From assembly GCA_965178125.1 (NCBI GenBank), contig OZ237735.1, forward strand, positions 1,550,001 through 1,614,000: 64,000 nt of DNA, written 5' to 3'. Below, one piece after another: positions 10,257 through 64,000 of this stretch (positions are counted from its first letter, which is position 1; the number at the start of each line of letters is the position of its first letter). A program made the translations under genes and the position numbers. Source of the stretch: Bilabrum cf. latius. Its lineage: Eukaryota. The notes under the pieces are model-generated. The model had not been told where the DNA came from. It was given only the letters and a program-made list of their open reading frames with translations, and ran no database searches.

Positions 10257-13200
10257 TTATTCACCCTAGTGGAGCATGCCAACTCCTGCCAGCGATTCGT
10301 CCAGCATCCCAACCGCCATCAGAGACCGCTCTACAACGTCATCCACTGCGGGTGCTACCGCCCCGCCGTGCCGAGCCTCCCCCTGGAGGAATTCGTCCCT
10401 GCCGCCGCCCTGCCCCTGCACCACCCACCGCGGCCCTCTCCCGCCCTCGAGCCCATCAAGCAGGGACTCATCCACAGACCGGCCGGCAGCGTCTCTTTCC
10501 TGTTCGTATGGACGGCGCTAACCCCTACCCCGGCCCTACTAATCCCGATCCCGACCCTGATCCAAGCCCAAGGCATGGCCCGCATCCCAAGGAAATGGTG
10601 CAAATCGATCGCGGTCGTGCGAGCCTGCCGCGAGCCCGGCCCCCTTTCCCACGGATCGTTCCTCGTCACCGGAGGCGCCCACTGCTCCCGCCCCCTCGCC
10701 CACAGCTCCTAGGATGCGCTCTTCCGCCCTGGCAAATAGGGCAGCGTCAGCCGCGCTCTCGTTCAGCAAGCGCTTGCCCACTGGGGACCGCCGAATGGCT
10801 GCGTCCAGACCCGCCTGCTGACCGGAGTCCGATGTGCCGCTCTGCAGGCGTTGCTTCCTGGCGTTGCTTTCTCGCCTGCTCCGTGGGAAGCGGCGCTCGG
10901 GTAGCGGAGAGGCCGCCGCTGGGCCGATCGAGGCATCTAGGCCCCATGCACCGCTTTGCGATCCGGCCTTTGAATTTCGGGTGCGTATGGCAGCCGGGCC
11001 AGAAGCTCCCTCGATGCTGGCATCTGGTCGGCTGGCCGCGTGCATTTTGTCTGGAGAGTCAGCCACCATCGTGATTTCTCCTTGCAGGATGCCGGCCTGC
11101 TGATCCTACCTCGATGGATCTGCGCCTGGCGATGGAGACGATGCATTGGCCGTGCCTGACTGTCCTGCGAAGTTGTTCGAGCTTTCGTCCTCTACGTCTC
11201 GGGTCGTCTCTCGGCTGCCCTCTGCGATGGTTTGGTCCTAAATCCTCCTCTTCCAGCTCGAGCCGAGCGCGGGCATGGCCACTGCCGCGCTCGGTCTGCC
11301 TGCGCGGTGCTTTGGAATCGCTGGTCGGCCAGCGCTCCGGCCACTCTTGCCGCTCTCAGTGGCAGTGGCGTCCATGATGTCCCCCCAAGACTTGACGCTC
11401 GAGTGGTCTGGGTCTGGGCCGGTTGCACGGCGGTCCATCTCACGGGGTCTTGTTGTCGATTCAGAAATACCTCGTGCAGCATGCCCGTTTGCTGAAGCGT
11501 CACGCGGAGGAGCTTTCCTCCTCGGCTGCTGGTCCGGGGCGGCGGACCGTGGCTGCTGCCTGTGCGCGTTGCGCAACGTTCCCACCAGTCCTTTTACAGC
11601 AGCCGTCCTGTCTTGCTGCATCGAGTCGTCCATATTCGCGGCTGTGCCCACCGCAAAACTGTCTTCTAGCTCGGCGGGCGCTCGCCCGTCCTCGACCTGC
11701 CGAAGCAGGAACGCCCTGATGCGCTGGTCTCGCTTCCGCCACTACTCATCTCTCTTCGACTGGGCCTCGGCCTCCCTGCGCTTCTACTCCTCCAGAAGCT
11801 GCTGCTTGCGTGTGCGTGCTCGCTCGATGGCTCGCTTCCGAGCCAGTTCTACAAGTGTCTTTTCGTCTACGTTCTCCCTTGGTTGCAACGTCGACTCGCC
11901 TAGCCCCCTCTGCCGCGGATCTCCGGCTGGGCTGCCGTGGCTTTCTCTCGGTGGCTGGCGGCTCGATGGGACACTTCCTGGCTAGCCATCAGCGGGGGTG
12001 TAGACCTCCGATGGGCTGGGGGCGATTGTACCTCGGCTACTGCGGCGCTTGCTGCCAGTAGCTGTCCGCCTTCTCGCCTCGTTCTTGGGCTTTTCGATCT
12101 CGTCGAGCTGGGCCGTCGTGTCGAGACCGAGCAGCATCGCCTTCTCCTTGCGTAGCGGGTCCGACGAGCGGGTTTCCGTTGCAGGTGATTCCAGCTCCTG
12201 TTGCCTCTGGCTGATGTCTGTGCGGTGACCCGCCGCCCGACCTGGCGCTCCACTCGCAGACCTCTGGGCGTGCATGCCAACGAGAAGCTCGGAGGCCGGA
12301 GGGAGCGGCCTCGGCTGCTGCCTGCGCCTTCGCGCGGGAGCAGCAGCCGCGCCAGCGCCCGACCTGCACGAACCGCGGTCTTGAAGGCCCTATTGACTTG
12401 CAAGCTGCGTCTGCTTCTCTATCTTCTGCTGCTTTTGGTGCTCTGCAGCAGCCTGTTGCTTGGCCTGTCGAACCATTGCACGGGCCTTGGCCGCCCGCTG
12501 CTAGGCGGCCTCTCGCCTGCTCTCCTCTTGCAGCCGCCTGCGGACGTCGATCAGGTTCGTGGACTCCTGCTCGGCCCGGAGCTTCTTCTCCTTCTCGGCA
12601 CGGGCGCGTTCCGCTGCTCGTTTCCGGGCTCGTCTGCGAGCCTCGGCAGGATCGACCTACGGAATCGACGGCGGATGAGCATGCGGGATCTCTGCATCGT
12701 CTGCCTGTTGCTGTGTCCGAGCAGATGCAGGGCGCTGATGTAACGCATCTCTCTATGGCTACTCTCCTGCCGAGCGAGCAGCACGATTTGGTCCCTGTGT
12801 ACCTCCGAAGTCGTGATCCTCTCGTCGCTCTTCGTGGGTGCCGTAGCCCCACCTGCCTTCGCGATCAAACCCTCGGCTGTTGCCCAACTCGCCATGTGAC
12901 TCTCCCCGGCCACTACTGCCGCTTCGTCGATCATACCCTCGGCTGTTGCCCAACACGCCATGTGACTCTCCCTGGCCACCACTGCTGCTCGGTCGATCCT
13001 AGTGCATCTATCTTGATGGGGGTAACAAACTGCTCTCGTGAATGTTGTGCGATTGTCTGTCTTTCCGACCGGATGCCGGGCGCATCGTGCCGTGCTCAGC
13101 TTCGGCATCCCAGCCCTCCTTAGCCTCGGGCTGCTGCTTGTTTTCGGTGATGCCCTTGAAATCTGCACCATCATCGTCATCGGCACCAGCGATGGGAAGC

Positions 13201-27261: not shown

Positions 27262-27463
27262 ATGTATTCGCAGGCACACAGCTGCCGCGCCAAAAAAATG
27301 AATATTACACGTTCGATGATGCAGGCAGTCCAATTTTCGCAACCAATCCAAGCGCTTCGCATCACCGCGCACCAATTCTTGCTCGCTTCCTCCAGGCAAG
27401 TGCTCCGATCCCGCCCGACGCGCTCGATTTCTCGAAGCCCCACGCACGGAAACAATCCAGCTC

Positions 27464-29024
<1,561 letters not shown>

Positions 29025-29511: not shown

Positions 29512-32124
29512 ATGCACAGTGAGAATTTGTTAAAGCATTTGCAGGCTGCTAATGCTTGATAGTTTCTACACATGCCGTGAATTAGTGGGGATCGAATCGA
29601 ACGGCTACTTTGCGCTGCAATCCTCTCGTTCTCCCCGCAGAGTATCGACTGATCAGCAAGAAGGGAGAGGGTACATTTTCAGAAGTAATTAAAGCGCAGT
29701 CTATTAAGAACAGCAGGTTTGCCGCGATCAAATGCATGAAGAATCGCTTCGAATCGATTGAGAAGGTCAACAGCCTCCGCGAAATCCAAGCGCTACGGCG
29801 GCTGTCTCCGCATCCTCACATCATAAATTTGTACGAGGTATTGTAGTAAGTCTATCTGAGTATCTGGGCGAGAGTATTACTTTAATGGTTGGCCCGAGAC
29901 TCGCCACCTTGCGTGCAGCACCGCCCTCACCCTTGCAGCGACTCACCGACAGGCAGGCTCGCTCTGGTATTCGAATTGATGGACTGCAACATATACGAGC
30001 TGATCAAGGGAAGAAAGCAATACTTGTCGGAGTCTCTCGTGAAGAACTACATGTACCAGCTCGTGAAGGCCATCGACCATATGCACCGCAACGGCATCTT
30101 TCATCGGGACATCAAGCCAGAGAATGTGCTCGTTGTTGACAACGTGCTGAAAGTCGCCGACTTTGGTAGCTGTAGAGGGATTTATTCTAGCTAGCCGTAC
30201 ACCGTAAGCACATCTTGTGCCATCGTGCCGATCGAGCCGCACGCAGCGCATGCTCCGATCTGCTCCACCGCCTTCCTGCCATGCCAAACCCTTCCAAGCG
30301 CAGGAGTACATTTCCACCAGGTGGTACCGAGCGCCAGAATGCTTGCTTACCGACGGATACTATGGGTACAAGATGGACATTTGGGGGATCGGCTGCGTGA
30401 TCTTTGAAGTCCTGACCCTGTCTCCTCTGTTTCCAGGCAAGGACGAGAAGGACCAGATCGAGCGGATCCACAGGATCATGGGGACGCCATCTGACGAGGT
30501 CCTGACGAAGTTTCGCAAGTTTTCCAAGCACATGAAGCTCAGGTTTTCCCCCGTGAAGGGGTCAGGGATCCGGAAGAAGCTATCCCATTGCTCCGCGGAC
30601 TGCGTCGACCTCATCGAGCAGATGCTTGCGTATGATCCGGAGGACCGAATCAGCGCCAAGCACGCACTGAGGCACCCATGGTTTGCTGATCTTCGAGCAA
30701 AGGACAAGAAAAAACGAAAACAGGGCAGCTCGCGCAGGGAGCCCGATGCTGAGTCGCGCCGCAGCGAGAGCAAGACCGACGGAGGCGGCTCCGTCGGCCA
30801 GGCGAGCGGTGCCAAAACCTCCTTGCAGAAAGCGAACGGAGGCCCCCAATCCGTGGACATTGTTGCAGGCGAAGCCATTCGGCGCGGGGACAAGAGCAAG
30901 GAGAGGACCAAGGAACCTGCATCCAGGAAACCGAGCAAGCAATCGAGACGGTCGCAGCCGCCTGAGGGCCCACTGCACGCGCCCAAGTCGTCTGCGACCA
31001 GCGCATCTCCGTCGACCACGTCCACAGGAAGGTAGAGCCACCACAGGCACAAGCACTAGCAGCTGCACGGCCACAAGGCCGAGCGCTCCGTCGCAGCGGT
31101 TCCGCAAGCAGTGCGCAGCGTCAAGGCCAGCTCGCCCACGGGCTCCTCGTCCGGAGCCAGTGCAAAGTCTGTAAGGAGACACGCCGGTGGTGCAGGGAAC
31201 AGCGCGACGATTGGAGCAGGCCAGCTTGGCGTGAGGCATCCGTCCAGCCAGGCCTCTATGTCCTCTATGGGAGGGGGAGGGGGAGGGGGACGGGGAGGGT
31301 ACGGGGGTGGTGCAGGGCACGGGCATGGGCAGTCGCACAACCGTCACGTGCAAGGGGGTGGTGCATTGAGCAGCAAGATGCTGTCGCCCTCCCCCATGCG
31401 GCACAGCCTGCCGGTCGGTGGTGCCGCCAGGGCAGCACCCCACATGCAGGGAGTGAGCAGGAGGAGGGGAGCACTAGAGCAAGTGTCGCAGGAGCAGTAT
31501 GGGGGGCATGGGGCAAGGGTAGCGCACCGACGCTAGCCCATGCCGCAGCCCCACCACCAAGGCGCGTGGAATGGGGGTCATGGGGGTCACGCTGGTGGCA
31601 TGAGGCACGCCGTGGGCGGGCACGTGCATGGCGAGGCCGCTGGGGGCAACGGTGGGCGTTAGAGGAGGCGACGCATCGCCAGGGGTGCGCTGGATCCGAT
31701 CGGAGCGAAGTCCGTGAGGCATCCACCGCTCGGAGGGCATCGAGTGGCGGCGAGCGGCAGCCTCACGGGCAAGGCACAACAGGTGCACTCGTACAGGATG
31801 TACGGCCCCGGCCCCGCGCAGCCGGTGCAGCACTCGTCATCGCATCACCACGGCGCGTCACCGCAGCACCACGCGCAGTTTGGGTACAAGGTCGGCCGTG
31901 GGGGTGGTGGGGCCGCGTTCTACGGGCAGCCGTACACGGGTGCACCATCCGCGGCGGCGGGCGGGTACGTCGCGCCGGTAGGTGTGGGAGGGGGTGGGCG
32001 CTCGCACGCGTACGGTGGACACCGAGGGGCTGGGCTGGCGGGAGGATCCGGTGCAGGTGGATACTATGGAGGTGGTGGCGCGGCAGCTGCTGCAGGTGGT
32101 CGTTCAGGGTACTACAGATGGTGA
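29512..32124 (+). CDS. MOK: MOK/LF4-type MAPK-related kinase with His/Gly-rich tail
   Basis: Introns 29519-29640, 29846-29938 and 30204-30303 yield [74 protein letters not shown]. Further TAGs in the tail; ends TGA. Confidence 0.92.
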
Positions 32125-32177: not shown

Positions 32178-32543
32178 TTACTTCCCACTCTTGCTACTCT
32201 TGTCCGCTTTCACAGCCTCCCTGTAATTCTCCAAATAATCTTTCAAAATCTCGACGTAATTCTCAAACCCGAGACAAGCAACTGCCCAAAGGACATCGTC
32301 TCCATTGATAGTCTTTCTTCGCTCCTGCCTGCACTTATCCGATGCTTCGGACGTTACAAACGAGATAAACTCGCTTACACATTCCTAGACAGTATCCTTT
32401 GCATCCTTGGCGATCTTGGCGCCTTCTGGAAGCGATTTTTTCATGATTCTAGCAATGTTGGCAACAGGCAGGTACCTATCCTGCTCGCGTTCCCCGGGTC
32501 CAGAGCCTCCCCCCATTGAGCCTGCACCTCCAGATGCTGCCAT
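32178..32543 (-). CDS. NFYB: Nuclear transcription factor Y subunit B (histone fold), 121 aa; absent from the ORF track because a TAG splits it
   Basis: [71 protein letters not shown] at 32385-32387; ends TAA. Confidence 0.95.
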
Positions 32544-32922: not shown

Positions 32923-34605
32923 TCACGTGGGAGGTCCGGCAGCCATGCGACCCCCGGCGCCACCACCGCGCCTCCAGCTCTTGCCGCGCCCCCGGGGCTT
33001 GAACCCCTGTGACGAGGACCCTCCGCGGCCGCCACTCCTGCCCCCGGAACGGGAGTCACCACCGTCAGCCAAGGGAAGCCCCCCAGGACCGAGGCCGCCG
33101 GACCCACCGAACGCACCAAACGTCTCGTCGTCCCTGTCCCTCCGACCTCCGCTCCGGCCCCCATCACCTCCACCTCCACCACGACCCCTGCCCCCGTACC
33201 CGAAACCGCCTCCCCTGCCATAGGAGCGATCACCACCCCTGCCACCCCCACCCCCGCCCCCAGAACGCCTCCCGAAGGCGGGGTTGTGATCGTACGAGCC
33301 CCCGCCCCGTCCGCCGTCCCTGCCCCCGCCACCACCCTCTCGCCTGTCGTAGAACCCCCCCCCCCGACCACCCCTGCCCCCGCCTCGCCCCCGTCCACGT
33401 CCCCGCCCCCCGGAACCGAACGTGAACTCCCTCGAGGAACCGCCGTCGTCGTCCAGCCCAACCGTGCCGAACGTCTCCTGGTCCCGCCTGCGCGAGGAGG
33501 AGGAAAAAAAGGGTGGAACGAATTCGATTTTGATTTTGATGAGACAGTGGTAAAAAGACCTGCGGGGCGACACGCAAATGCATGCGATCATGTACCACAA
33601 ACCAGGACGGACTAGGCCTGCCTTGCAGAGAGCAAGTTCGAGCTGGTGTTCTGCACTACTAGCACACGAGCTGGCAAAAGATGCTCTCGGGGGGAAACGC
33701 GCAGTACAAGGCGCGCTACCTTGCCAGCATGAAATCCTCGCTTGTGAGGGGGTTTCACGAGTCCCAGGCGTGCGCGAGCGGTCCTAGCATCGAGGTGGCA
33801 ATCTGGGGCCGCGGTGCCAGAGGCGGTGAGGCGGTGAGGGGAGCAGAGGGGGACTCACCTTCCTGAAGTTCTCGATCCCTTTTGCTGGGAGTACATGCGG
33901 TCTGAGGTCGCCGTCTGGTCGAAGAATCCAGCGCTTTTGTCGTACACGGGCTTGACGTCCGGTTTCTCCTCGCTGGCGGGGTCGGCCAGGGCGGCCTCGG
34001 CCGGCGCAGCCTCACCGCCGCCAGCGGACCCTGTTGGCATTTCCTTCTTTCTCAGCCGTTCGAACTCCTTCAAACCCTTTGTGATGTCGTACTCGCTTGG
34101 CTCCGGTGCCGGAGCGGGCGCTGGTGCTGAGGCTGGGGCTAGTGCCTCCGCTTCAGCTGGAGTTGATGCCAGAATGGCCGGGTCCACAAACGGCACCTCG
34201 ATCACCTAGAGATCGATCACATCATCCCCATTAAACGTTACCTCCTTGATCACTCCAGGCTACGGTGGGATATGTTTCGGAACCTCTCGATCCTCAGTTC
34301 CCAGCACTCGAACTGCGTGTCGCAGCGGCGTCGTGGGGGGTTTCGGGACGACTGGAGACATAGCGCTGACGCAATCGCCGTGCAAACGTTACGGTACTCA
34401 CCATCATCCAGCTCCACGGACCGCGCCTCGGTATTCAGCTGCGAGATGGCGCAACAAACCCGCAAGAATACGCATTCGCTGCTTGCGCAGGCTTAGACTT
34501 GCTCAAAGTTAGTCTCCTACGACTCACTGACTTAAGAGTTCCCTCATAACGAATCTAAGATTTCGTGATAATGCTAATCTGCTTCCCAACAAAGTCTGAG
34601 GCCAT
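32923..34605 (-). CDS. LSM14: LSM14/Scd6/RAP55 family mRNP protein (LSm domain, FDF/FFD/TFG boxes, RGG tail)
   Basis: MASDFVGKQISIITKS*IRYEGTL, VRVLGTEDR, FNGDDVIDL*V, YDKSAGFFD; intron 33858-33488; RRDQETFG and RGG repeats; ends TGA. The 5' intron borders are not fully resolved. Confidence 0.88.
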
Positions 34606-34710
34606 GCTATCAGCTGCTCTATCGCGGTAATGATGCGGCCGGCCCCAGGCTTGTCGAACCTTTGATAGCAGATTCGAACGTTCGTTGAACTGGGCTCTGC
34701 AGATTGCTTT

Positions 34711-37700
34711 ATGCGCGTCTACAGATCCAAAGCGATGATCAGACGTGCTAGTTTGCAGCACATTTGTTGCAAAAAAATCCTTTTGCACGCTCCATTTTTC
34801 CGTACATGGAGGTCAGTTGCCTCTATTGCTCAAATATCAGACAAAGTTGCGACCGCAGCCGAGCGTGGCACGCCAGTGGTTGCCCTCGAAAGCACAATAA
34901 TCTCTCACGGAATGCCGTATCCTCAAAACGTTGAGACAGCAATCCTGGTGGAGAATAGCTTGCGCGAGCATGGCGTTGAACCCGCTACTGTGGCAGTATT
35001 GCAGGGAAAACTGAAGGTCGGGCTCACAGAAGCAGAAATAGACTAGCTTGGGCGGACAGGACAAGCTGCAAGAAAGTGTTCAAGAAGAGATTTGGCATCT
35101 GCGCTAGCCCTTGGACAGACCGGAGCGACAACGGTTTCTGGAACGATGATTGGAGCACATGCTGCCGGGATTGGAGTGTTCGTTACGGGTGGCATTGGCG
35201 GCGTGCATAGGGGCTTTGAGGAGACAATGGACGTATCAGCTGATATAACAGAGCTGGGACGAACTCCAGTTGGAGTTGTGTGCGCTGGAGCCAAGAGCAT
35301 CCTCGACATTCCAAGGACCCTCGAGGCACTGGAGACCAACGGCGTGTGCGTTGGTTCGCTCGCGGCGGAAGAATTCCCGGCCTTTTTCAGCCCACGATCC
35401 GGAATATCTGCGCCTCACGTATTCGCAAATGAGGCAGAAGTCGCCGCCACGCTGGATGCCGCCGAGCAGCTGTTGCTTGACTCTGGCACCGTGGTGGCAG
35501 TGCCCAACCCAGAGCCGGCCGAGGGTGAGGCCATCGAAGAGGCGGTGCAGCAGGCCCTCAAGGAAGCAGAGGCAGCCAAGGTGGGCGGAAGAGACGTCAC
35601 CCCGTTCCTGCTGAAGAGGGTCAACGAGATCACCGAGGGCGCCTCGCTCCGCTCAAACATCGCGCTCGTGCTCAGCAACGCCAGGGCGGGGGCAGCCATC
35701 GCAACCGAGTTGCAGAGGCTGCGAAACTTGCGGGGGATCCCAAGTGCGAGAGTACCGGGAATTGCAGCCCCTCGGGGAGCGGTTCTCTCGAACCAGAGAA
35801 CCGGCCACTCTACGCGATCCACTCGGGAGTTCAGCTCCTTGGCGGCCGGTGTGAATGGGGCCGCCGGAAAACTCGCGGCAGGGTGCCGCAAGCCCAAATC
35901 TGCGCTCGGTAAGGGATCTATTGGCATTCGACGGGTGTCCAGCAGCGCGCCGCGCCTTGCGGTAGAACCCAACCCTCAAGAGGCCGCGGCTGCAGCCGCC
36001 CAAGAGCTGGTCGGGGAGCTCCTGCTTGTGCCTGGCACCGTGTCCTGGCTGGAAGGTGCCCCAGCAGCGGCTGCTGACCGGCCGTTCCACAGACGCAAGC
36101 CGCGCGTTGTCGTGGTTGGTGGCTCCGCGGTCGACGTGACGGCCCGTCCCGGAGGACAGGCGCAGGACGCGGGCACAGGGGAGGACATAGCCCCGGGAGT
36201 GTTCCGGGGAACTTCCAACCCGGGCGTGGTGAGGAACACGTTTGGGGGCGTCGGTCGAAACATGGCGGAAGCGGCTGCTAGGCTGGGTGCAGACGTGGTG
36301 CTTGTGACAGCGCTAGGCAGCGACGCCCCCGGTAAGGCTCTCGTGGACCATTGCGCTGGCGTGGGCGTCAAGGTCTCGAAAGGCTCGTTGCGGAAGGGTG
36401 CACGCACGCCGCAGTACGTCGCGCTCACCGACAGCAACGGCGAGATGGTCACTGCGGTGGCAGACATGCAGGCCTCCGACGAGCTGCCACCGGCGGCAAT
36501 CAACGATGACCCCGGCGCGCTGAGTGCCATACAGGCCGCCGAGGTCATGCTCGTGGACGGGAACGTGCCCGAAGAGACCCTAGCAGCAGCGCTGCAGGCA
36601 GCTGCTGCCACGAGCAAAGATCGAAAGAAGCGACACGAATCGCAGCTACGAAAAGCGGGCGTGGAGCCCGGCAGCGACCTCCGTCAAGTGCAGGATCGCC
36701 TGACTGGGACACTGCAGCACCCTGGCATCATGACAGACAGCGCGCTTGGCGTGCCGGTGGTGTTCGAACCCACCTCTGAGGCTAAGGCGAGCCGAGTGGC
36801 TACGTTGTCTCGGCTTGCGCTCGTGTCAGCAATGACCCCCAACCAGGGAGAGCTTGCTGCTGTCGCTGCCCGCCTGCGCTAGACGCTGGCACGGGACGCG
36901 CCCGACTCGAAGATCCGGTCCAGGCCGACGTTCTTGGGACAAGAGAACTCGTACGTCGAGGAGCAGAAGCGGAAATGGGCGTCATTCAAGGAGCGCCAGC
37001 TCAAGCGGCTCGCGGCCGGTGAATCGATGGAGTCGCCATACCAGCAAACCGTAGTAGTAGGTCCCGACGGCTCGCAGCAAGTCAGGGACCGATCGGGTGT
37101 GGTGGTGCGGACAGGCGACGTCTCGCAAGAATCAGAATCCAACGACCAATTTCCTGATTTCATGCGGCTACCCGGAGACGAAGAGCGGCAGCTACTGCAG
37201 GAGCTGTGCAACGACGAGCTCAGAATGAGGTGGCACCTGTGTCTGGCTGGCGCCAGGCACGAGGTCGCCGCGGCTCTGAGGAGCAGGGCGGGCACTGTGG
37301 GCAGCTGGACAGAAGATGATGGGCGGTGGGAGGTGGCTCGCGAGTTCTTTGAAGGCACTGTGTTCGGTGACAAGCTGGGCGCCGGCATGACCAGCGAGAG
37401 CGGCGCGATCAGCGAGGTGCAGCTGGACCGGATCATTTCTGAGGATAGAGAAGAGGTTGATCAGCTGGGTGACGTGAGGGCCCAGATGGCTTCCATGTCA
37501 GGCACGGCACTGCTCGAGGTTGACATGGACGAGTGGATGGGCATGATGAGGACAGAGTTCAGAAGGGCGGTGTCCGAGGCTGCAGCAAGCGGCGGGAGTG
37601 GGGCTGCCGGAGGATCGCCTGAGCTCCTGACCCAGATCTAGGACAAGGTGGGCGTGCAGGCGGCTGCCGAGCGATTGTTTGGCTTGGCTGGTGCTGCCAG

Positions 37701-39612
37701 TCCGGAGTCCCGACGGGCAACTGCGGCGCGGGTCGCGGATCATGTTGGTGACTAGATTCAGCAGAATGGCATGTCGCCCGATGCCGCTGTGGCCAGTCTC
37801 ACACAGCACGGCGTGGGCGGTCCCGAGGCGCATGAGGTGGGGCGGCTGCTGCTGGGAGTCTCGCAACAAATGGGCGTTTCTATGCCAGACATGGGGAGGC
37901 TATGCAGTGCGGGATTCATCGACTCGTTGCTGGATGAAGCGATCGGATTCAAGTCCCATCGTTGGATCAAGGCATTCGAGAAGAGTGCAGAGCAAGCGGC
38001 TCAGTAGCAGCAGCAGTAGCGGCATTCGCAGTAGACGGGCAGTATGGGCTCTGGGGCAGCTCCTCCGCATGGTGCTCGGGGCTTTTGCAGTCGGCCGTGG
38101 AGGCGCAAGATCGGCAGGCCGTTTCTTTGCAGCCCGGCTGCCGGCAACGGTGCGCTGTCGCTTGAATCTCGCAGACGAGTGGCAAGGAAAATGCAGCGTG
38201 CCAGGGGGTTGGGGCAAGTACGTATTGCTAGATCATCGTCATCGACATCAGTATCGGCATGTAGCAGCACTGGCAACAATGGTGGCGGCAATGCCAGCAG
38301 CCGCAATGCCAGCCCCGCATCTGCTGGGTCCGCGTTTCTAGCCGGGCACTTGCAGCGCGGAGCCAGAGGCAAGCGAAACGAAGAAGGGGGGGCTCGGCGC
38401 TCAGCCGTACGGGGCAGGTCCATCGCTGTTGTCGGAGTTGGCGATATGAACGCCCCCTCGGCTGGTGCAACGGATGATCGCAGTGGAATGGTGGCACCAG
38501 GGGACAGCTCGACAGGCGGGATGCAGTCTGCTGACCGGGGAAGGGTGGTGTCTCACGAGCTGGCAGGAGCACAGCCAGCGGCTACTTGGGCGCGGCGAGG
38601 ATCTCACAACGTGCAAGCAGAAACAGAAACAGCAACGGCAACAGAGTCAGCGGGAGAAGGCAGCAACCTTCAGCTGCTGGACGAATCCAGCACGATCCAG
38701 CGTGGGGCTCCGCACTGGCTGCCCCGCACCCCTGAAGAGTACAGCGCGCTTCCGCCCGACAAGCAGAAGGAGGTGGATGCGTGGATGAAGCTGGCCTAGG
38801 ATCTCGCCATGGACGAGGTGGAGCAGGCTGGCAGTGAGAAGGAACGGTACAGAAAGGCGGTGGAGCTGCAGGCTGCGACCGTGCGGGAATGGGCCAAGGC
38901 AGAGCTGCAGCTGCCCGAGCACAGCTTCTTGTATTCGCACATACGCATGCTGGAGGCAGTGGCAGAGAGAGGCGGCGGGATGCTGCCAGCCGATGGCATC
39001 GATGAGCGGCAGGACACGTACGGCAGGCTGGCTGCATACGAGGAGCGAGCGATCGGCGCGGGAGCAGAGGGCGCCTTTCGCGAGGCGAGACCTGCCCTGC
39101 ACCAAGGAGTGGGCCCTGGCGTGATCGATGACGCGTTTGACGTGTTGCTGTGCATGGCCAATCCTGCCTCGGCGGTGATTGGGGCGGGCCTGATCGAGGG
39201 GCACAAGTGGATCGTGGTGACGATGGGCGCAAAAGGTGCCGTCCTCTTTTCCATGCGGATGCTTGACATGGAGACGTACGATGAAGTGACCGGCTGGGAC
39301 GCCCTGACGGCTCTTGAGAAGAGGGTGCTTCGGCTGCAGTGGGTGAAGCCGGGGAGCACAATCGGGCCCGATGACGTCGTTAGCGTGACAGGAGCCGGGG
39401 ACTGCCTTGCTGCGGCCATGGTGCGAGGCATCGCGGGGGGAGGAGGCATCGCTCGGTCCGTGGCGCTTGGTTTGGCGGCAGGTGCCAGGGCCGTCCAGTC
39501 CGAGGAGGCAGTTCCCTGCGATTTGGAGCTGAGGGCACTGGCACAGGATGGCAGGGATGGCGTGTGGGAGGCAAACCGTGGCATGCTGAACTGCATGAGG
39601 GGGGCGTGGTGA
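34711..39612 (+). CDS. Pseudouridine-5'-phosphate glycosidase (PsuG) fused to PfkB-family pseudouridine kinase (PsuK), about 1630 aa
   Basis: PVVALESTIISHGMPYPQN, GATTVSGTM, TGGIGGVHRG, GAKSILDI, VTPFLL; then VVVGGSAVD, GGVGRNMAE, TPNQGEL, VVTMGAKG, VSVTGAGDCL. One frame across 8 TAGs; ends TGA. The start could be 34711 or 34735. Confidence 0.88.
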
Positions 39613-44292: not shown

Positions 44293-45546
44293 TTAGCCTA
44301 TAGAATCCTTGCTCACCTTTTCCTCAGATTCCCTTTCTACCTGCACCCCGATCACGCTCATGTCCCGGTCTCCGTCACCGGCCTCGACAAGCGCCTCGAA
44401 CCGAGACAAGGCCAGACGGGCGCACCGCAATGCAGTGACGAGTCCGCCCCGACTCTCTTCGGAACTTCCCCCACCAGACCCTGCCAATACCTTGGAATAT
44501 GAGGCCCCACTGTTGCTGACACGACCGAGCGATTCGCCACCACCTGCACCATCCCCACCATCGGATCCCGCTGCCCCTGCCCCCGCGCCTGCGCCTGCCC
44601 CTACGCCTGCCCCTGCCCCTGCGCCTGCGCCTGCCCCCGCGCCTGCGCCTGTGCTACACGTCGCAGAATCAGGTGCAACTCCATCCGATCCATATGTCCC
44701 AGCTATGTCCCCGTGCCCGTCCTCCTATCCCAGGCCCTCTGCCTCGACCAAGACCGTCCTCAGGTCCTTGAGCATGTACTTTGCCGGCCCGCCCGGCTCG
44801 AACTCTCCGCGCGCCATCCTGACCCCGTGTTCCCTGAGGACAGGACTGTCTGCGAATCCTCCTTGCAGCGCCTGCAGCACCGCAGGCACGTCGGCACCCC
44901 CTCTTTTTGCGAGGAGCACGGCCTCGGCCACTGCGCTCGCAGCGGTACCCACGATCAGCTGGTTGCAGAGCTTGCACAGCGACCCCGCCCCCGGAGGACC
45001 CACCCGAGTGATCTTCCCGCAGTTGGATAGGAGACTCTCGCACACCGACAGCGCGACGGGATGTCCGCCCGCCATGACTGCCAGGGTGCCGGCCCGTGCA
45101 CCGGCCTCTCCGCCGGACACAGGCGCATCGGCGTAAGATCGTCCCGACCTGGCAGCAAGCTCAGCCTGCCGCCGCGCTGTAGAAGGCGGTATAGAAGAAC
45201 ACATGATGATGCAGCACGTTGGAGACGTTGACTCGAACAGAGCTGGCGGGCCGCGATCCGCCGCTTCAAATAGGACAGCGTCTGTGGTTGGACCGTCTGA
45301 CAGCATGCTGACCACAACCTGTGCCCCCTTCACAGCATCTAACGCAGATTCACATACAATCAATTCACACAGCATCTCGCCGAATTCCCCTGATCGCGCT
45401 TCTTCGGCTGCTTTCTCAGCCTTGCTCGTTGTTCGGTTCCATAGACGCACAGATGCCCCACCTTGTAGTGTTGCTGACATCCGTGCTGCCATCGGGGCAC
45501 CCATAATGCCTGTCCCTAGGAATGCCACGGATGTGATAGCATCCAT
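44293..45546 (-). CDS. Beta-hydroxyacid dehydrogenase (3-hydroxyisobutyrate/tartronate semialdehyde reductase family)
   Basis: VAFLGTGIMGAPMA, WNRT, DAPVSGGEAGA..GTLAVMAGG, KLCNQL, MLKDL. After the TAG at 44725 comes a Gly-Ala-rich insert, then the family C-terminal helix FEALVEAGDGDRDMS. Ends TAA. Confidence 0.88.
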
Positions 45547-45620
45547 ATCGCTATTGGGCAAGGTTTAGAGCTGTTCTGCAAGCTGTTGCAGTTGGTACCA
45601 GTCATCCGGAGCATATTTAT

Positions 45621-55470: not shown

Positions 55471-55834
55471 TCGGACAGTGCCCTTGGTCTTCCGATTGTG
55501 CCGAGCTCTCTTCTTTCAATTTAAAAAATCGAACGTCGTGACACAAATGAAGATGAAGATGCCAATCAGGCGAGGCGACGAGACCTCTGAAATTCGTCTT
55601 GTTTCGTCTTTTAAGTCTCTATCTTGGCATTATCATTTGGATTAATCGACAGAAGCTTCGAAACGAGGTTGGGCAGAATTGACTCGACTCTTGTAGGGTG
55701 CCAGATCGCTTCAAGCTCGTTTGGTTCGCCGGTCGCTGGTTTTCGTTCGTTAATAGTCGGCAGCCAGCAGGCCTGTTATAAATATACATACAAGTATAAA
55801 TTACAAACGTGAAAGTACAGTCCACCCAATCGCC

Positions 55835-57109
55835 ATGGAGCAAGCCGGTCCAAGTTCCGAGGAGGTGATCGATCTCGTCCACAGCGACTCGAGCGAGAGC
55901 TACAACTCCGAAAGTGATTTCGCAGTCCCCGGCAGCGGCAGCGGCACGAGTGCAGTAGCAAGACTATGGACTCGCGCTAGCAGGCATGGCAACCGTGGTG
56001 TGCATTCGAAAGGCAGGGCGCGGTACCCACGTCGCGATCCAGCTGTGGCCATCGTCAAACCTCAGTCCAGAAGTCCCGTGTCCTCTGTGGCGTCAGGGTC
56101 ATCCAGCAGCAGCAGCAGCAGCGCAGTATCGCAGCAGGCGGTGCAATCATCGATGAAGGCGAGCTCAGGTGCAACTGCAGGCGACAGCAGCAGCGCCTCT
56201 CTGGGGCAGAAACGCGGCAGGCAGGCAGTGTCGCGTGTGGAGGCAATGGACGTCTGCTAGGATGGAAGGGCGAAGAGGCGGCGGAGAGAAGCAGCTGGAA
56301 GTGTGTCAGCTGCCGGGTATGCGTGCGAGGTATGCAGGAAAGTGCTGAGCAGCATGGCCAGCTTGAGGAGGCACATGTCCACTGTGCACTTGGGCGAGCG
56401 GAAGCACGAGTGCAGTGTGTGCGGCAAGTCGTTCGGGGAGGCAGGCAATCTCAGGACGCACATGTCCACTGTGCATCATGGCGAGCGCAAGCACGAGTGC
56501 ATGGAGTGCGGCAAGTCATTCGGGCAGGCAGGCCATCTCAGGACGCACATGTCCACTGTGCATCTGGGGTAGCGCAAGCACGAGTGCATGGAGTGCGGCA
56601 AGTCATTCGGGCAGGCAAGCTCACTCAGGACGCACATGTCCACTGTGCATCTAGGCGAGCGGAAGCACGAGTGCATGGAGTGCGGCAAGGCATTCGGGCA
56701 GGCAGGCTCACTCAGGACGCACATGTCCACTGTGCATCTAGGCGAGCGGAAGCACGAGTGCATGGTGTGCGGCAAGGCCTTTGGGATGGCAGGCAATCTC
56801 AGGACGCACATGTCCGTAGTGCATCTGGGGTAGCGCAAGCACGAGTGCATGGAGTGCGGCAAGTCGTTCGGGCAGGCAGGCAATCTCAGGACGCACATGT
56901 CCACTGTGCATCTAGGCGAGCGCAAGCACGAGTGCATGGAGTGCGGCAAGTCATTCGGGCAGGCAAGCTCACTCAGGACGCACATGTCCACTGTGCATCA
57001 TGGCGAGCGCAAGCACGAGTGCATGGAGTGCGGCAAGTCATTCGGGGAGGCAGGCAATCTCAGGAGGCACATGTCCGTAGTGCATCATGGCGAGCGCAAG
57101 CACGAGTGA
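55835..57109 (+). CDS. C2H2 zinc-finger array protein, 9 fingers (87-nt units)
   Basis: Ser-rich N-terminus and basic NLS-like KRRRR; units CxxC-GKSFG-xxxx-LRTH-MSTVH-LGERKHE. In-frame TAGs at 56258, 56570, 56831; ends TGA. Confidence 0.88.
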
Positions 57110-57264
57110 AAGGTCTGGGAGGTCGAACTCTTCCTAGATGCTCCCGCGAATGTGATGAAGTACCAGCAATGGCAGCTTTTTCCAAGTCTTGTTGTATTTT
57201 CGTGGTCATCAGGATAGAAGCGACGGGGAGCAGAGGTGAGCCGGAAGACGAGGTGAGTGCAGGA

Positions 57265-58063
57265 GGGCAGGAGGTGAAGAGGGACAAAGAGGGACACACC
57301 GGCACAGGAGGACAGGAGGTGGAGAGGGACAAAAGAGGGACACCGGCACAGGAGGACAGGAGGTGAAGAGGGACAAAGAGGGACACACCGGCACAGGAGG
57401 ACAGGAGGTGGAGAGGGACAAAGAGGGACACACCGGCACAGGAGGACAGGAGGTGGAGAGGGACAAGAGGGACACACCGGCACAGGAGGACAGGAGGTGG
57501 AGAGGGACAAGAGAGACACACCGGCACAGGAGGACAGGAGGTGAAGAGGGACAAAGAGGGACACACCGGCACAGGAGGACAGGAGGTGGAGAGGGACAAG
57601 AGAGACACACCGGCACAGGAGGACAGGAGGTGAAGAGGGACAAAGAGGGACACACCGGCACAGGAGGACAGGAGGTGGAGAGGGACAAGAGAGACACACC
57701 GGCACAGGAGGACAGGAGGTGAAGAGGGACAAAGAGGGACACACCGGCACAGGAGGACAGGAGGTGGAGAGGGACAAGAGAGACACACCGGCACAGGAGG
57801 ACAGGAGGTGAAGAGGGACAAAGAGGGACACACCGGCACAGGAGGACAGGAGGTGAAGAGGGACAAAGAGGGACACACCGGCACAGGAGGACAGGAGGTG
57901 GAGAGGGACAAAGAGGGACACACCGGCACAGGAGGACAGGAGGTGGAGAGGGACAAGAGGGACACACCGGCACAGGAGGACAGGAGGTGGAGAGGGACAA
58001 AGAGGGACACACCGGCACAGGAGGACAGGAGGTGGAGAGGGACAAGAGAGACACACCGGCACA
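57265..58063. repeat. Purine-rich minisatellite, about 18 units of 43-45 bp
   Basis: Unit ggaggacaggaggtg(g/a)agagggacaa(a)gagggacacaccggcaca, with alternating length variants. Confidence 0.95.
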
Positions 58064-58520
58064 GATGACGACAGTGCGGTGTCAAAAGGGAGAACACAAC
58101 GGGAGGAACGGGGGCTCCAGGTGCAAGGCACGAGGAAGACCCGAATGGTAGCGGCCTGCATGGCCAGCAACGCGCAGAGGGCCAACAGGCGGGTGGAAAG
58201 ATGGGGCGCACGGCAGGTCGGCCAGGACCGGCGCGTGCGGGCTGAGAGGATAGGGCCAAGGTGGCGATGCAGGGAGCAAAGCACACGGTCCCTAGGGCGG
58301 CGAACAGGAACAGGAAGCCATGTGGCGACGAGGCCAGTCGCGTGCATTGGGAAAGTGGCGTGTACATTCGTAGTGGGCCAGATGAATACCGCATTCAGGC
58401 GGACCGGTGAAGAACCAGTCGTTCGGGGTTAAGCCCAGAGGGTCGGCGGGACCGGGGGCAGGAAAGTTTCTTAACATGGGCTCCCTGCCGCTGTGCATCT
58501 TTGTCTGTGCAATGCCTGGC

Positions 58521-59659
58521 TCAGGACCAGATGTCCCGCACATACCTGCCCTGCTCCATTATGCTCACCAAAGCGCGCTGAGACTCGCCCATGCCAGGCA
58601 GAGCCTTCACGCTCGCCTGCAGCACGTCGGAGGCCCGGCCCCCGCTGCCATCGGCCCGCACCGCCGCCTCCACCACGGCCTCCCCGCCCGCCAGCACCGC
58701 AGTCAGGGCCTGGTGCACCACATCTCGCGCCATGGCCGCGCCGTCACCGCACCATGTACACGTAGTTGCCCTCCTTCACGATGAGCTGCCTGAGCCTGTC
58801 GGCCACCTGAGGCTCCAGCATGCGGTTCCACACGGACGTCCTGGCTCCCTCCACCACGCCCTGAATGCCATCGTCATCGTCGTGCCTCCGGTCATGCGCC
58901 GGCTTGCCGCTGCGGCCCTCCCGACTGAAGGCGCAGTGCAGCTCGGTGGGGTCGCCCCCTTGCAGCAGCGAGGCCCAGTCGCGCCGAGATAGAAAGTCGC
59001 AGCTGCTCCTGCTCCTGCGGTTGCCGAGCAGCAGCAGCACGTCGCCCGCCGGCACGGCCGGCCTGCCGCCCATCATCGGCACCTGCTCGGGGTTGGACGC
59101 CAGCAGGCCAGAGGACCTGAAGCGAGCGATGGGGGCTGCGCGAGTCGGCGCACTCCGCGGCTTCCTCCCGATCCAGCGCGCGCATCAGCCGATACACCGC
59201 CGCGATCTCCCTCGGGGGCGCCTGGAAGCTGGCACACGTGCCCAGAGCCAGGCGAGACCGGAGGCGAGCCGGGCCCAGGAGAGCAGCCGCGCCGGCGGAG
59301 GGCGACTCGGATGGACCCGCCGGCCCGTCGCAGACGCTTCCAGTCACGTTGAGAACGGCGGCAGTAGCAGCGGCAGCCATCCGCGCGCTGGCAACCGCTG
59401 CTGCCTCGGCCTTGGCAAGCTCGTCGCTCCTCACCGATGCCTTGTCGCCTGGAAGCTGCACTGCATCCGCGATCAGCTCGGCAGACCTGGCAGAGGGAAT
59501 GCCCTGCGTGGACACGTGCAACATGCCCGCACCAGCACCGTTGGTAGATGTCGCTCCACCGAGCGGCGAAGCTCCCCCGATCCAGCAGCTGGGAGCTCCC
59601 CTGCAGGGACGGTCCCAATTTGTAGGTTCCGCTGTCAGTGCGCGGTGAGTGGATGACAA
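58521..59659 (-). pseudogene. Diflavin reductase (methionine synthase reductase-like) 3' fragment with frameshifts, copy 2
   Basis: LLLLGNR..DFL..LHCAFSRE, MARDV.HQAL and terminal GRYVRDIWS lie in different frames. It has a 1-nt insertion relative to copy 1 near 58750. Confidence 0.65.
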
Positions 59660-59897
59660 GATCTCTCGATTTCAACTCATTCCGTCTTCAAAGCCTCGAT
59701 CTTGGCGTTGGCATTTGACTTGTTCGAGAAGTGCTCCGAGACCAGGTCGGGCGAAATCGAAGTAGACCAGTCTACTGCAGGGACTTCCAGCTCGTTCTGT
59801 TTGTCAGTCGCTGGTTTTCGTTCTGCAGCCGCCAGCCAGTCGGCCTGATATAGAGATACAAGTTACACACGCGGAGCATCGACTGCCCAATAGCGCC

Positions 59898-61328
59898 ATG
59901 GCGCAAGCCGGTCCAAGCTCCGAGGAGGTAATCGACCTCGTCCACAGCGACTCGAGCGAGAGCGACACCTCCGAGAGTGATTTCGAAGCCCCCGATAGAT
60001 GCATCGGGATAAGCGAAGGAATAAGAGAAAGGACTCGCAGTAGCAGGCATGGAAACCGTGGTGTGTATGCGAAAGGCAGGGCGCGGTATCCACGTCACGA
60101 TCGGTCTAGTAGATATAGTCCTGTGTCCTCTGTGGCGTCAGGGTCATCCAGCAGCAGCAGCAGCAGCGCAGTATCGCAGCAGGCGGTGCAATCATCGATG
60201 AAGGCGAGCTCCGGTGCAGCTGCAGGCGACAGCAGCAGCACCTCTCTGGGGCAGAAACGCGGCAGGCAGGCAGTGTCGCGCGTGGAGGCAATGGACGTCT
60301 ACTAGGATGGTAAGGCTAAGAGGCGGCGGAGAGAAGCGGCTGGAAGTGTGTCAGCTGCCGGGTATGCGTGCGAGGTATGCGGGAAAGTGCTGAGCAGCAT
60401 GGCCAGCTTGAGGAGGCACCTGTCCGTGGTGCATCTGGGCGAGCGCAAGCACAAGTGCAGCGTGTGCGGCAAGGCATTCGGGCGGGCAAGCAGTCTCAGG
60501 ACGCACATGTCCACTGTGCATCATGGCGAGCGCAAGCACGAGTGCATGGAGTGCGGCAAGGCATTCGGGCGGGCAAGCAGTCTCAGGACGCACATGTCCA
60601 CTGTGCATCTGGGCGAGCGCAAGCACGAGTGCAGCGTGTGCGGCAAGTCATTCGGGCTGGCAGGCTCACTCAGGACGCACATGTCCACTGTGCATCTAGG
60701 CGAGCGCAAGCACGAGTGCAGCGTGTGCGGCAAGTCATTCGGGCTGGCAGGCTCACTCAGGACGCACATGTCCACTGTGCATCTGGGGTAGCGCAAGCAC
60801 GAGTGCAGTATGTGCGGCAAGTCATTCGGGCAGGCAGGCTCACTCAGGAGGCACATGTCCGTGGTGCATCTGGGCGAGCGCAAGCACGAGTGCATGGTGT
60901 GCGGCAAGGCGTTCGGGCTGGCAGGCTCACTCAGGACGCACATGTCCACTGTGCATTTGGGGTAGCGCAAGCACGAGTGCAGCGTGTGCGGCAAGTCATT
61001 CGGACAGGCAGGCCATCTCCGGACGCACATGTCCACTGTGCATCTGGGCGAGCGCAAGCACGAGTGCAGCGTGTGCGGCAAGGCATTCGGGGAGGCAGGC
61101 CATCTCAGGAGGCACATGTCCACTGTGCATCATGGCGAGCGCAAGCACGAGTGCAGTGTGTGCGGCAAGGCGTTCGGGCAGGCTGGGACTCTCAGGAGGC
61201 ACATGTCCGTGGTGCATCATGGCGAGCACAAGCACGAGTGCATGGTATGCGGCAAGTCATTCGGTGTAGCAGGCAATCTCAGGAGGCACATGTCCGTGGT
61301 GCATCATGGCGAGCGCAAGCACGAGTGA
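59898..61328 (+). CDS. C2H2 zinc-finger array protein, 11 fingers; paralog of 55835-57109
   Basis: Same N-terminus (QAGPSSEEVIDLVHSDSSES) and same 29-aa unit. TAGs at 60303, 60789, 60963; ends TGA. Confidence 0.88.
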
Positions 61329-61468
61329 AAGGTCTGGGAGGTTGAACTCTTCCTAGATGCTCCCGCGAATGTGATGACGCACCAGCAATGGCAGCTTTTC
61401 TCAAGTCTTTCTCAAAATGGGCTTCCTACCTCTGTGCATATTTGCCTGCCAGTGTGTCATATTGCCGC

Positions 61469-61670
61469 TCAGGACCACATGTCCCGCACATACCTCCCCT
61501 GCTCCATCATGCTCACCTGAAGGCGCAGTGCAGCTCGGTGAGGTCGCCCCCTTGCAGCAGCGAGGCCCTGTCGCGCCGAGATAGAAAGTCGCAGCTGCTC
61601 CTGCGGTTGCCGAGCAGCAGCAGCACGTCGCCCGCCGGCACGGCCGGCTTGCTGCCCATCATTGGCAATG
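61469..61670 (-). pseudogene. Internally deleted third copy of the diflavin reductase fragment
   Basis: Matches ~58521-58570 joined directly to ~58925-59080. Confidence 0.6.
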
Positions 61671-62564
61671 GCTTGGGGTTCGATGCTTCGTGGCTCGGAG
61701 GTATGCTGTCCCCCATCGCCCTCGTGCTGCTCCTACTCGCTGTCCTGCAGCTCCTCGCGAGCCTTTGTGCCGCCGAGCAACGCCTCGCTGCTGGTGTTCT
61801 TGGGCCCGTCCACCTTGCAAGCGTCATCCTCCTCGTGCTCGTTGTCCTGACAACAAATCTTGTTATATGGACTCGGACATCAGGATTGAAGCAACGGGGA
61901 GCAGAGGTGAGACGGAAGACGAGGTGGGCGCAGGAGCACAGGAGGTGGAGAAGAAGAGGGGGACACCGGCACAGGCGACGACAGTGCGGTGTCAACAGGG
62001 AGAACACAACGGGGGGAAGGGGGCTCCAGGTGCAAGGCACGAGGGAGACACGGGTGGCAGCGGACTGCATGGCCAGCAGCACGCAGAAGGCCAACAGGTG
62101 GGTGGACAGATGGGGCGCACGGCAGGTCGGCCAGGACCGGCGCGTGCAAGCTGAAAGGATAGGGCCAAGGTGGCAATGCTGGGAGCAAAGCACACGGACC
62201 CTAGGGCGGGGAACAGGAACAGGAAGCCATGTGGCGACGAGGCCAGTCGGGTGCATGGGGAAAGTGGTGTGTACATTCGTAGTGTCAGATGAATACCGCA
62301 TTCAGGTGGACCGGTGAAGAACCAGTCGTTCGGGGTGAAGCCCAGTGGGTCCGCGGGACCGGGGGCAGGAATTTTTTCTGCAACTCATCTACAAGCACGA
62401 TCGGCGATCGAGGCACCCGGAGCCGTCTGCCCAAAGTGACAAAGTCCCTCCAATCCATGTGCGTCCAGTTCCCTTCTCGCACATCACTGTCTCTACATGC
62501 CTGCACCGCACATATTATTGGAATTAGGCTGGCCAGCTACACGTCCTGACTGGCAGAATGGCAA

Positions 62565-64000
62565 TTAAACCGAGTCGGCCCCTCCCTTGTAGAACAGGAA
62601 GATCTCCCAGGTCCCGAAGAAGATCTCAAGGGCGACTTCTGCCACGATGAGCCAAATGACAATCCACTCGAGTCTGCTTGAGTGCTACGCCTCCAGCTGC
62701 GTGGACAGCATCTCCAGAAGCTCCCGAATGACATCTAGCCGCTGGTTCAGGAGGTCAACCCGCCGCTCGATGTCCAAATAGGACTGCATCCTCTCGAAGA
62801 TTGGCTCGAACTCGTCCGACTCCCAGAGGAATTCCGGGGTATCCAACAAGTCCGACGTGTTGATGGTGTTTCTCTCCACGAAAAGGAGCCCGATCTTCTT
62901 GGACACGTCCAGCTCGGACAAGCCGACGCGCCCAGTCCTCGCTAGCTCGATCGGCACGCTCTGGGTCTTGGAGATCGTCCTGTTGACACGAGTCTCTAGC
63001 ACGCTCAGCTTGACGCTCTGTGCAAAGGCATACGAAGCAGCCAGCCTCTCGATGGGGTCGTTCGTCCCCAGCACCACCTCGTCGCTGACCACGCGGCTCT
63101 TGGCGCCGTGGCTGAACTCCATGTCGTCGCATTCGATCTCAGACACGGGACCCAGCACCAGGCCCCCGCCCGTCCCACTCGCCCCGCGGCCGAAGGCAGC
63201 AGACAGGAAAGTACCGGTACCGGTTCTGCCCGTGGCTACTGATGCAGACGAATCCTGCTTCCGGAGCACATGCTCGGGGGCAAGCATGGCGGCACCCATA
63301 GCACGCCTGCGGAGTCCATCGGCTCCCGCAGAGTGGTTGACGCTCACTGCGCTGCCGGTGACTGCTTGCATCCCTCGGTGGCTCCACGACTGCCACCCGT
63401 CGCCTTGCTGATGCTGCTGCTGCTGCTGCTGATGTTGTTGTTGTTGAAATCCGTGACCAGCACTGGTGGCGGACCTGCCCCCGGGTTTGCCCATGGCCAG
63501 CCGGGAGGACCCCAGCTGGGAGCGAGATGCACCACTGCCACCTGCACCTTGCCCAGGGGTCCCTGGCCCGACGCCGGAATCGGCTCCGGATCCCGCCAGG
63601 GAATCGTTCTGAAGCAGGGAGGCCGTCGCGGACGCACCACTGCCTGCTCCTCCGTGCAAGGACCCGATCGATCGGATGGGCGACTCCTAAGTGGCGGTGG
63701 TTGAGCTCGGGCCAAGCTCCAGCCCGATCCCGCTCGAGTCGTGGTGGGCAGCAGCAGCCAAAGAGCCATGCTTTCCCTCATGTGATCGGCCGCCGTCTTG
63801 TTCCTTGGTCTCCTCGGAGACGTTGTTCCCTGAGCCGGAGGAGCGGCTGCCCGCGTTGGCCCGCTCCAGCCGGATAGCGCGAACCTCTGCCTCAGCCTCC
63901 GCCGCGGCCGCTGCGGCCTCCTCTGCGGTCTGCTCCGCAACTGCTTTGTCGTAGAGGAAATCTATCTCTGGGTATATGCTGTCCCGGTCCCCGTCATCGT
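62565..64000 (-). CDS. RMD1/DUF155 family protein, 3' part (start lies beyond the window)
   Basis: SYAFAQSVKLSVLE, LLDTPEFLWE, YLDIERRVDLLNQRLDVI, LEA*HSSRLEWIVIWLI (TM helix). TAGs at 63687 and 62685; ends TAA at 62565. Confidence 0.88.

Follow-up and report, generated by a model that had tools for sequence, protein, structure and literature searches.

UAA and UAG are nearly always reassigned as a pair, because they are treated alike both in wobble pairing and by eRF1. Each lineage that splits the two is a natural experiment, in which a tRNA and a release factor tell a third-position G from an A. UAG-only reassignment has been described in the rhizarian exLh, where UAG encodes leucine, and in Iotanema spirale, where it encodes glutamine (PMC5304391), as well as in Scotinosphaera (serine), Protocruzia tuzeti (glutamine) and several phyllopharyngean ciliates (PMC11687900). 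Non-ciliate cases are few, and two of them, exLh and Iotanema, were known only from transcriptomes, without genomes, when described (PMC5304391). According to the same source, reading UAG but not UAA takes a tRNA whose anticodon is CUA, as well as an eRF1 that has lost efficient recognition of UAG only; it notes that the GTS motif is altered by T32G in Iotanema eRF1, and it discusses the eRF1 residues corresponding to human T32 and L69. Here we report on the genetic code of a 64-kb stretch of contig OZ237735.1 (the window; positions are counted from its first letter), for which an initial annotation, made from the letters alone, had proposed that UAG was reassigned by itself while UAA and UGA were kept as terminators. 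Every test made on the window was consistent with this proposal, as was a related environmental contig. We consider it very likely that the window follows the nuclear code of a GC-rich eukaryote in which UAG is a sense codon, most likely for glutamine, and UGA (mainly) and UAA are stop codons. The precedents named with the proposal (Iotanema, a rhizarian and phyllopharyngeans) stand, and the list was incomplete in that it lacked Scotinosphaera (UAG as serine) and Protocruzia tuzeti (UAG as glutamine) (PMC11687900).

The window is eukaryotic nuclear DNA with spliceosomal introns, with an overall GC content of 60% (56-65% along its length). Under the standard code the longest frame starting with ATG is 837 aa, and reading through TAG gives frames of 2078, 1633, 1427, 1324 and 1069 aa. 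A Pfam scan of the readthrough frames, with TAG shown as X, identified isoleucyl-tRNA synthetase, phospholipase B, two protein kinases, methionine aminopeptidase 2 (MetAP2), NF-YB, LSM12- and LSM14-like proteins, a pectinacetylesterase fused to two beta-helix domains, a pseudouridine-5'-phosphate glycosidase-PfkB kinase fusion, an alpha-galactosidase with a ricin lectin domain, a HIBADH-type dehydrogenase, a threonine dehydratase, two C2H2 zinc-finger arrays, RMD1/DUF155 and an Aquarius N-terminus. A total of 23 gene models, comprising 15,315 codons, were built using splice joints where these are known, in frames delimited by TAA and TGA. The models on which most of the following rests are:

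2370..6653, plus strand: isoleucyl-tRNA synthetase (IleRS), 1427 codons, two in-frame TAG (2556, 3765), TGA end
6890..10099, minus strand: pectinacetylesterase with two beta-helix (GH55-like) domains (PAE-GH55), 1069 codons, seven in-frame TAG, TGA end
10257-16493, minus strand: orphan gene, 2078 codons, 25 in-frame TAG, closing TAA at 10257..10259
17942..19588, plus strand: phospholipase B-like (PLB), three in-frame TAG, TGA end, Pfam match over positions 1-486 of 487
27464-29025, minus strand: MetAP2, intron 28663-28762, TGA end
29641..32124, plus strand: CDK-like kinase, which we take to resemble the MOK/RCK kinases, introns 29846-29938 and 30204-30303, five in-frame TAG, TGA end
32178-32543, minus strand: NF-YB, 121 codons, closing TAA at 32178..32180
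32923..34608, minus strand: LSM14/Scd6-like, three introns, three in-frame TAG, TGA end
34711..39612, plus strand: pseudouridine-5'-phosphate glycosidase-PfkB kinase fusion (PsuG-PfkB), 1633 codons, eight in-frame TAG, TGA end
44293-45546, minus strand: HIBADH-type dehydrogenase, 417 codons, closing TAA at 44293..44295
55835..57109, plus strand: C2H2 zinc-finger gene 1, three in-frame TAG (two at the linker position), TGA end
59898..61328, plus strand: C2H2 zinc-finger gene 2, a paralogue with 88-89% DNA identity, three in-frame TAG, TGA end
62565-63998, minus strand: RMD1/DUF155, 477 codons, N-terminus off the window, closing TAA at 62565..62567

UAG is a sense codon. In-frame TAG is found in 20 of the 23 models, 81 times in all, alongside 442 CAG and 106 CAA, and corresponds to ~13% of presumed glutamine codons. 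It lies inside the Pfam domains of IleRS, MetAP2, NF-YB, phospholipase B, PsuG, the kinases and the zinc fingers. Conserved segments (5026 codons) contain 17 TAG, no TAA and no TGA in frame, and the other five frames of the same segments carry 5.66 TAG, 1.83 TAA and 16.14 TGA per 1000 codons. The orphan frame has neither TGA nor TAA over 6.2 kb, with off-frame TGA at 16 per 1000 codons, and the 25 TAG within it must be read through. TAG occurs in it at 12 per 1000 codons, against 3.4 per 1000 for the conserved segments, and seems to build up where sequence evolves fast and is of low complexity.

The lack of internal TAA and TGA in the models is partly circular, since the frames were delimited by these two triplets. 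We therefore used a frame-independent test. Around each TAG, TAA and TGA of either strand, codon-usage log-odds were summed over 60 codons on each side, with a weight of zero for any stop triplet within them. Both flanks were coding (>15 bits each) for 14 of 824 TAG, none of 389 TAA and none of 1614 TGA in the window. A good upstream flank followed by a negative downstream flank was seen for 14 TGA, two TAA and five TAG. The two TAA are the end of RMD1, where the coding score is 27.7 bits before the triplet and -26.2 bits after it, and an exon-intron border of an ankyrin gene. The earlier statement that no internal in-frame TAA was seen is borne out by the absence of TAA with coding flanks on both sides.

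UAA and UGA still terminate, and UGA is the one mainly used. Among the 23 models, 18 end in TGA, four in TAA and none in TAG, and one runs off the window; by design no frame was closed at a TAG, and homology provides a check for only some of the 22 visible ends. All four TAA ends listed in the initial annotation (10257, 32178, 44293 and 62565) were found to be TAA on the minus strand, each closing an open frame, and its statement that the other genes end in TGA and none in TAG agrees with the 18 TGA counted here. Its description of the TAA ends as plausible C-termini applies to different degrees: RMD1 and the dehydrogenase match their homologues, NF-YB is plausible only, and the orphan has no homologues. 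The TAA of RMD1 comes just after a C-terminal hydrophobic helix, 10 residues beyond the point at which 114 of 120 homologues end; the remaining six end within -4 to +8 of it. For the dehydrogenase, 114 of 120 homologues end between nine residues before the TAA and six after. NF-YB has a complete histone fold (Pfam positions 2-65 of 65) and then a 12-residue tail after 'YRE', with the next in-frame stop beyond its TAA being a TGA eight codons on. This end is plausible, the tail region being naturally variable and the solved chains being truncated constructs. MetAP2 ends in ...RGDDY, equal to the last residues of the human chain, directly followed by TGA.

Environmental relatives show the same pattern. 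A protein search with MetAP2 returned two environmental proteins with 89% and 82% identity, all others being at most 72% identical, and a metagenome scan recovered contigs L001 (9.5 kb, 58% GC) and L002, both of which encode an 89%-identical MetAP2 whose conserved ...RGDDY is followed by TAA. L001 further carries SURF6, with four in-frame TAG (three inside the Pfam domain) and a TAA end, and an RPN5 gene with a TGA end. At the MetAP2 loci of other eukaryotes in the scan, the last residue is followed by TAA in 28 cases, by TAG in 22 and by TGA in 19, so TAG is a common terminator of MetAP2 elsewhere. Both the TAG-sense trait and the TAA terminator are thus present in at least one environmental relative. 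The claim that UAA terminates and that UAG is uncoupled from it is supported, within the bounds of one window and one related contig, by the TAA ends (two of the four at the C-termini of homologues) and by the TAA end of the relative's MetAP2.

The amino acid was sought in columns aligned from 120 homologues each of MetAP2, RMD1 and the dehydrogenase, and in alignments of the remaining genes. Three TAG sites fall in near-invariant columns, all of them glutamine and with glutamate absent from the homologues:

28385..28387, minus strand: MetAP2 site 2, column with Q in 112 of 120 homologues (H 4, N 2, M 2)
32385..32387, minus strand: NF-YB, Q in all five printed alignments to solved NF-YB/HapC chains
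62685..62687, minus strand: RMD1, column with Q in 107 of 120 homologues

When TAG was translated as Q, E or L in ten gene segments, the best Pfam scores summed over 11 families to 2217.2, 2212.7 and 2195.3 bits, respectively, with Q equal to or above E in eight of the 11 families and E ahead by 0.1-1.5 bits in three. In our own profiles, built from 120 homologues each of MetAP2 and RMD1, Q ranked first of the 20 residues for both genes, and the sums over the two were 999.6 for Q, 996.3 for K and 995.3 for E. In each data set Q leads E and K by no more than 3-5 bits. Taken together, the three near-invariant columns and the profile scores make glutamine the highly probable meaning of TAG, and leucine is unlikely.

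Several observations weigh against the reading set out above, and they are taken here with the explanations they favour. The best surviving of these, which we nevertheless regard as unlikely, keeps TAG as sense and TAA and TGA as stops and has TAG encode glutamate or lysine. In the zinc-finger linkers TAG occurs four times where the other paralogous repeats have GAG, the glutamate codon (15 of 19). MetAP2 site 1 is E in both relatives, in a variable column. Two proteins that are 93% and 95% identical to PAE-GH55 residues 1-509 and 511-1069 (P0362 and P0361, respectively) carry Q, Q, Q, K, K, E and G at its seven TAG sites; the three Q speak for glutamine and the K, K, E and G at the other four do not. 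The two look like the products of a single gene that a standard-code gene caller cut at the point where the window protein has a glutamate (E510), and this cut would suggest a TAG there in the relative. Besides the three Pfam families with E slightly above Q, the NCBIfam model of type II MetAP (TIGR00501) does not discriminate, with K on top (K 318.7, Q 317.9, E 317.6, L 316.9); no NCBIfam model matches RMD1. For the TAG of the dehydrogenase the aligned residue is L in 107 of 120 homologues, but the site borders a ~100-residue insertion and its alignment there is ambiguous. Columns are variable at the TAG sites of IleRS (T/K), PsuG (R/L/A), LSM14 (R,R,Q; T,T,R,K), PLB and PAE-GH55; among 148 representatives of distant PAE/GH55 homologues, with P0361 and P0362 set aside, all seven TAG sites lie in variable columns and are uninformative on the residue. 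Alignments of the kinase exon to PDB chains stop before the TAG. Against glutamate or lysine stand the near-invariant Q columns of MetAP2, RMD1 and NF-YB, from which E is absent, a summed Pfam score 4.5 bits lower for glutamate, and our own profiles, which place Q 4.3 bits above E and 3.3 bits above K. Their combined probability is put at a small fraction of that given to glutamine.

A second explanation, which we judge less probable still, is an ambiguous TAG of the Condylostoma type, sense inside genes and a context-dependent terminator at some ends. It draws on the small number of visible gene ends (22), with frames extended past every TAG by construction, and on the orphan, whose end lacks a homology check (no Pfam family and no homologues) and which has a TAG two codons before its TAA. 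The sample, comprising one 64-kb window and 9.5 kb from one relative, also leaves room for occasional TAG terminators or occasional sense TAA in the rest of the genome. The five TAG with coding-like upstream and poor downstream flanks can all be explained: one lies in the kinase gene with an intron 12 nt downstream, another belongs to the dehydrogenase's low-complexity insertion, the orphan with its poor scores accounts for two, and one is antisense to IleRS. None of the five has a TAA or TGA within the next 60 codons. Each conserved C-terminus that was checked is directly followed by TGA or TAA and never by TAG, and the ambiguous reading must still accommodate readthrough of 25 TAG in a single frame.

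In a third explanation, UAA and UAG both encode glutamine (table 6), TAA is rare through GC-richness and the four TAA ends are accidental. In every frame TAA is indeed less frequent than TAG or TGA (54-100 per frame), and at the observed CAA:CAG usage the 5026 most conserved codons should hold only ~2.6 TAA, so its absence from these is weak evidence. Across all models, however, ~19 internal TAA would be expected for 81 TAG at a CAA:CAG ratio of 106:442, and no gene was seen broken mid-domain by one. TAA stands at the C-termini of homologues in RMD1 and the dehydrogenase, coding potential collapses past the RMD1 TAA, and ...RGDDY of the relative's MetAP2 is followed by TAA. We consider a table 6 code very improbable, and retain a code in which UAG alone has become sense.

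That the TAG triplets are present in independent data was seen from contigs of four coded runs, from four different studies, aligned to window positions 27001-47000. Contigs of X6 and X8 skip GT..AG intervals, whereas those of X1 and X5 follow the DNA collinearly. That X6 and X8 are RNA is a guess, as none of the runs listed with this stretch is registered as RNA. The kinase gene and LSM14 each account for three of the skipped introns, MetAP2 for one and the plus-strand ankyrin gene for six. No differing letter is listed between 27001 and 46300. Spliced or transcript-like pieces span the TAG codons of MetAP2, NF-YB, LSM14, PsuG-PfkB, alpha-galactosidase and the dehydrogenase without any other letter: X6 record 18 spans 34796-39702 (PsuG-PfkB) without a joint and with no other letters, X6 record 16 and X8 record 21 cover the MetAP2 TAG at 28385..28387, again with no other letters, and X8 record 22, from a spliced run, spans 32171-32733 (NF-YB). 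The same TAG in several independent data sets, including intron-less contigs, argues against both sequencing error and editing. That the in-frame TAG are artefacts of pseudogenes or sequencing errors, or are edited out of the RNA, is scarcely credible, given 81 TAG over 20 of 23 models with essential genes among them, identical letters in contigs of four runs and four studies, a trait shared with a relative, and the complete exclusion of TGA and TAA from the same frames.

Under the favoured code, with UAG as glutamine, UAG would be read by a tRNA with anticodon CUA, probably derived from tRNA-Gln(CUG) by one change and not pairing with UAA, and eRF1 would lack efficient action on UAG with its recognition of UAA and UGA kept. 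In-frame TAG would arise mainly through CAG-to-TAG changes and at tolerant sites, which fits a TAG density more than three times higher in the fast-evolving orphan than in conserved genes. Neither a tRNA gene nor eRF1 was seen in the window, tRNA genes likewise being absent from L001 and L002, and no Rfam family was found in the window at gathering thresholds; this lack of the predicted decoding components belongs with the points that count against the reading.

A number of further observations concern the genes themselves. The PsuG and PfkB halves of the fusion (34711-39612) are separated by several hundred non-conserved residues, which also interrupt the kinase domain and hold most of the TAG codons of that gene. 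The ankyrin-repeat gene at 40200-42000 (plus strand) has ~100-nt exons, about one repeat per exon, and six introns of 86-213 nt; it ends in TGA without any in-frame TAG, and a run contig runs on from it into the convergent alpha-galactosidase gene. The TGA of the kinase (32122-32124, plus strand) and the TAA of NF-YB (32178-32180, minus strand) converge with 53 nt between the stop codons, so that the 3' untranslated regions are very short or overlapping. PAE-GH55 ends at the same residue as the 95%-identical P0361 (...FMGDTPY) and is then closed by TGA.

A 279-codon gene at 53933-54772 (plus strand) has the strongest codon bias of the window (205 bits), contains one in-frame TAG and ends in ...KLAFAF followed by TGA; it has no significant Pfam family. 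Positions 55100-57500 and 58500-61700 form a segmental duplication with 86-89% DNA identity, each copy holding a C2H2 zinc-finger array (nine and ten linkers were counted) and a reductase-like fragment, which has no significant Pfam match and presumably resembles a flavoprotein reductase C-terminus. One of the reductase-like copies ends in ...GRYVRDIWS, then TGA at 58521. TGA as cysteine was considered for the zinc-finger genes, both of which end in '...GERKHE' plus TGA where other repeats have 'HEC', and was rejected, the sequence after the TGA not being finger-like; a further exon after these ends is possible. The stretch at 45600-49750 (4 kb) has a lower GC content (52.6%), coding potential in no frame and no similarity to the rest of the window. 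In its part within the aligned region (45.6-47.0 kb), raised depth and variant contigs in the source run suggest a repeat.

At 44560-44730 the C-terminal domain of the dehydrogenase is interrupted by ~100 inserted residues, in frame, GA-rich and of low complexity. The best homologues of the dehydrogenase are bacterial, with 43-52% identity. Those of RMD1, a family that we take to act in mitochondrial translation, are 263-aa proteins including some from Parachlamydia-like bacteria, plus Guillardia and Symbiodinium. The relatives of both proteins are all distant (43-56% identity, mostly bacterial) and were used for comparing C-termini and not as orthologues; both genes may have been acquired by transfer.

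As to affiliation, the best named matches of MetAP2 are stramenopiles at 65-70% identity. In a quick single-gene MetAP2 tree of 71 rows, the window forms a long branch with its two relatives P0001 and P0002, outside a 65-row cluster that holds all named stramenopiles. Thraustochytrids, Iotanema and ciliates were considered on general grounds as possible affiliations, and no support was found for any of them. Practical consequences follow for annotation: applied to this organism or its relatives, the standard code would cut most long genes at TAG, and the near-orthologue stored as P0362 and P0361 appears to be a case of such cutting. Long genomic and spliced transcript contigs exist, from which the predicted tRNA-Gln(CUA) and eRF1 substitutions should be directly readable, as they were not for the transcriptome-only Iotanema and exLh (PMC5304391).

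Compared with the described systems, the window agrees in its codon assignments with Iotanema spirale, for which PMC5304391 gives UAG at conserved glutamines, no UAG terminators and no in-frame UAA or UGA. The two differ in the use of terminators, with 104 UAA and 15 UGA among 126 Iotanema genes (PMC5304391) compared with 18 TGA and four TAA in the window. Iotanema is an anaerobic fornicate known from a transcriptome (PMC5304391), whereas the window is genomic DNA of 60% GC with an RMD1/DUF155 gene, and nothing was found in it that ties it to fornicates. In phyllopharyngean ciliates and Protocruzia tuzeti UAG is likewise reassigned without UAA, in some of them to glutamine (PMC11687900), the probable meaning in the window. 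The window itself, with 60% GC, introns of 86-371 nt and source-run contigs of >200 kb, contains nothing pointing to a ciliate, and metagenomic MetAP2 loci with in-frame TAA and TAG are only 58-62% identical to its MetAP2.

The rhizarian exLh shares with the window a sense UAG and terminating UAA and UGA (PMC5304391). UAG is leucine in exLh, a residue disfavoured in the window by a summed Pfam score 21.9 bits below that of glutamine and found in none and in five of 120 homologues, respectively, at the window's two best columns. Table 6, as used by ciliates, diplomonads and ulvophytes (UAR as glutamine), gives UAG the meaning that is most likely in the window, while UAA is a terminator in the window and not sense. 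The ambiguous codes of Condylostoma and Blastocrithidia have sense UGA or UAA, in contrast to none of 389 TAA and none of 1614 TGA with coding flanks in the window. A search of full-text literature, covering few subscription journals and no supplements, turned up no description of this code in any stramenopile or any other GC-rich non-ciliate lineage. The type of code is already known, from Iotanema and some ciliates, and the present lineage appears to be unreported. Whether it represents an independent and previously unreported origin of UAG-only reassignment (to glutamine), in a GC-rich, intron-bearing lineage that is neither ciliate nor fornicate and includes environmental relatives, is in our view an evenly balanced question. 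Such an origin would be at a fairly early stage, as TAG makes up only a minor share of glutamine codons, is enriched in fast-evolving sequence, and has left TGA, ahead of TAA, as the main terminator.

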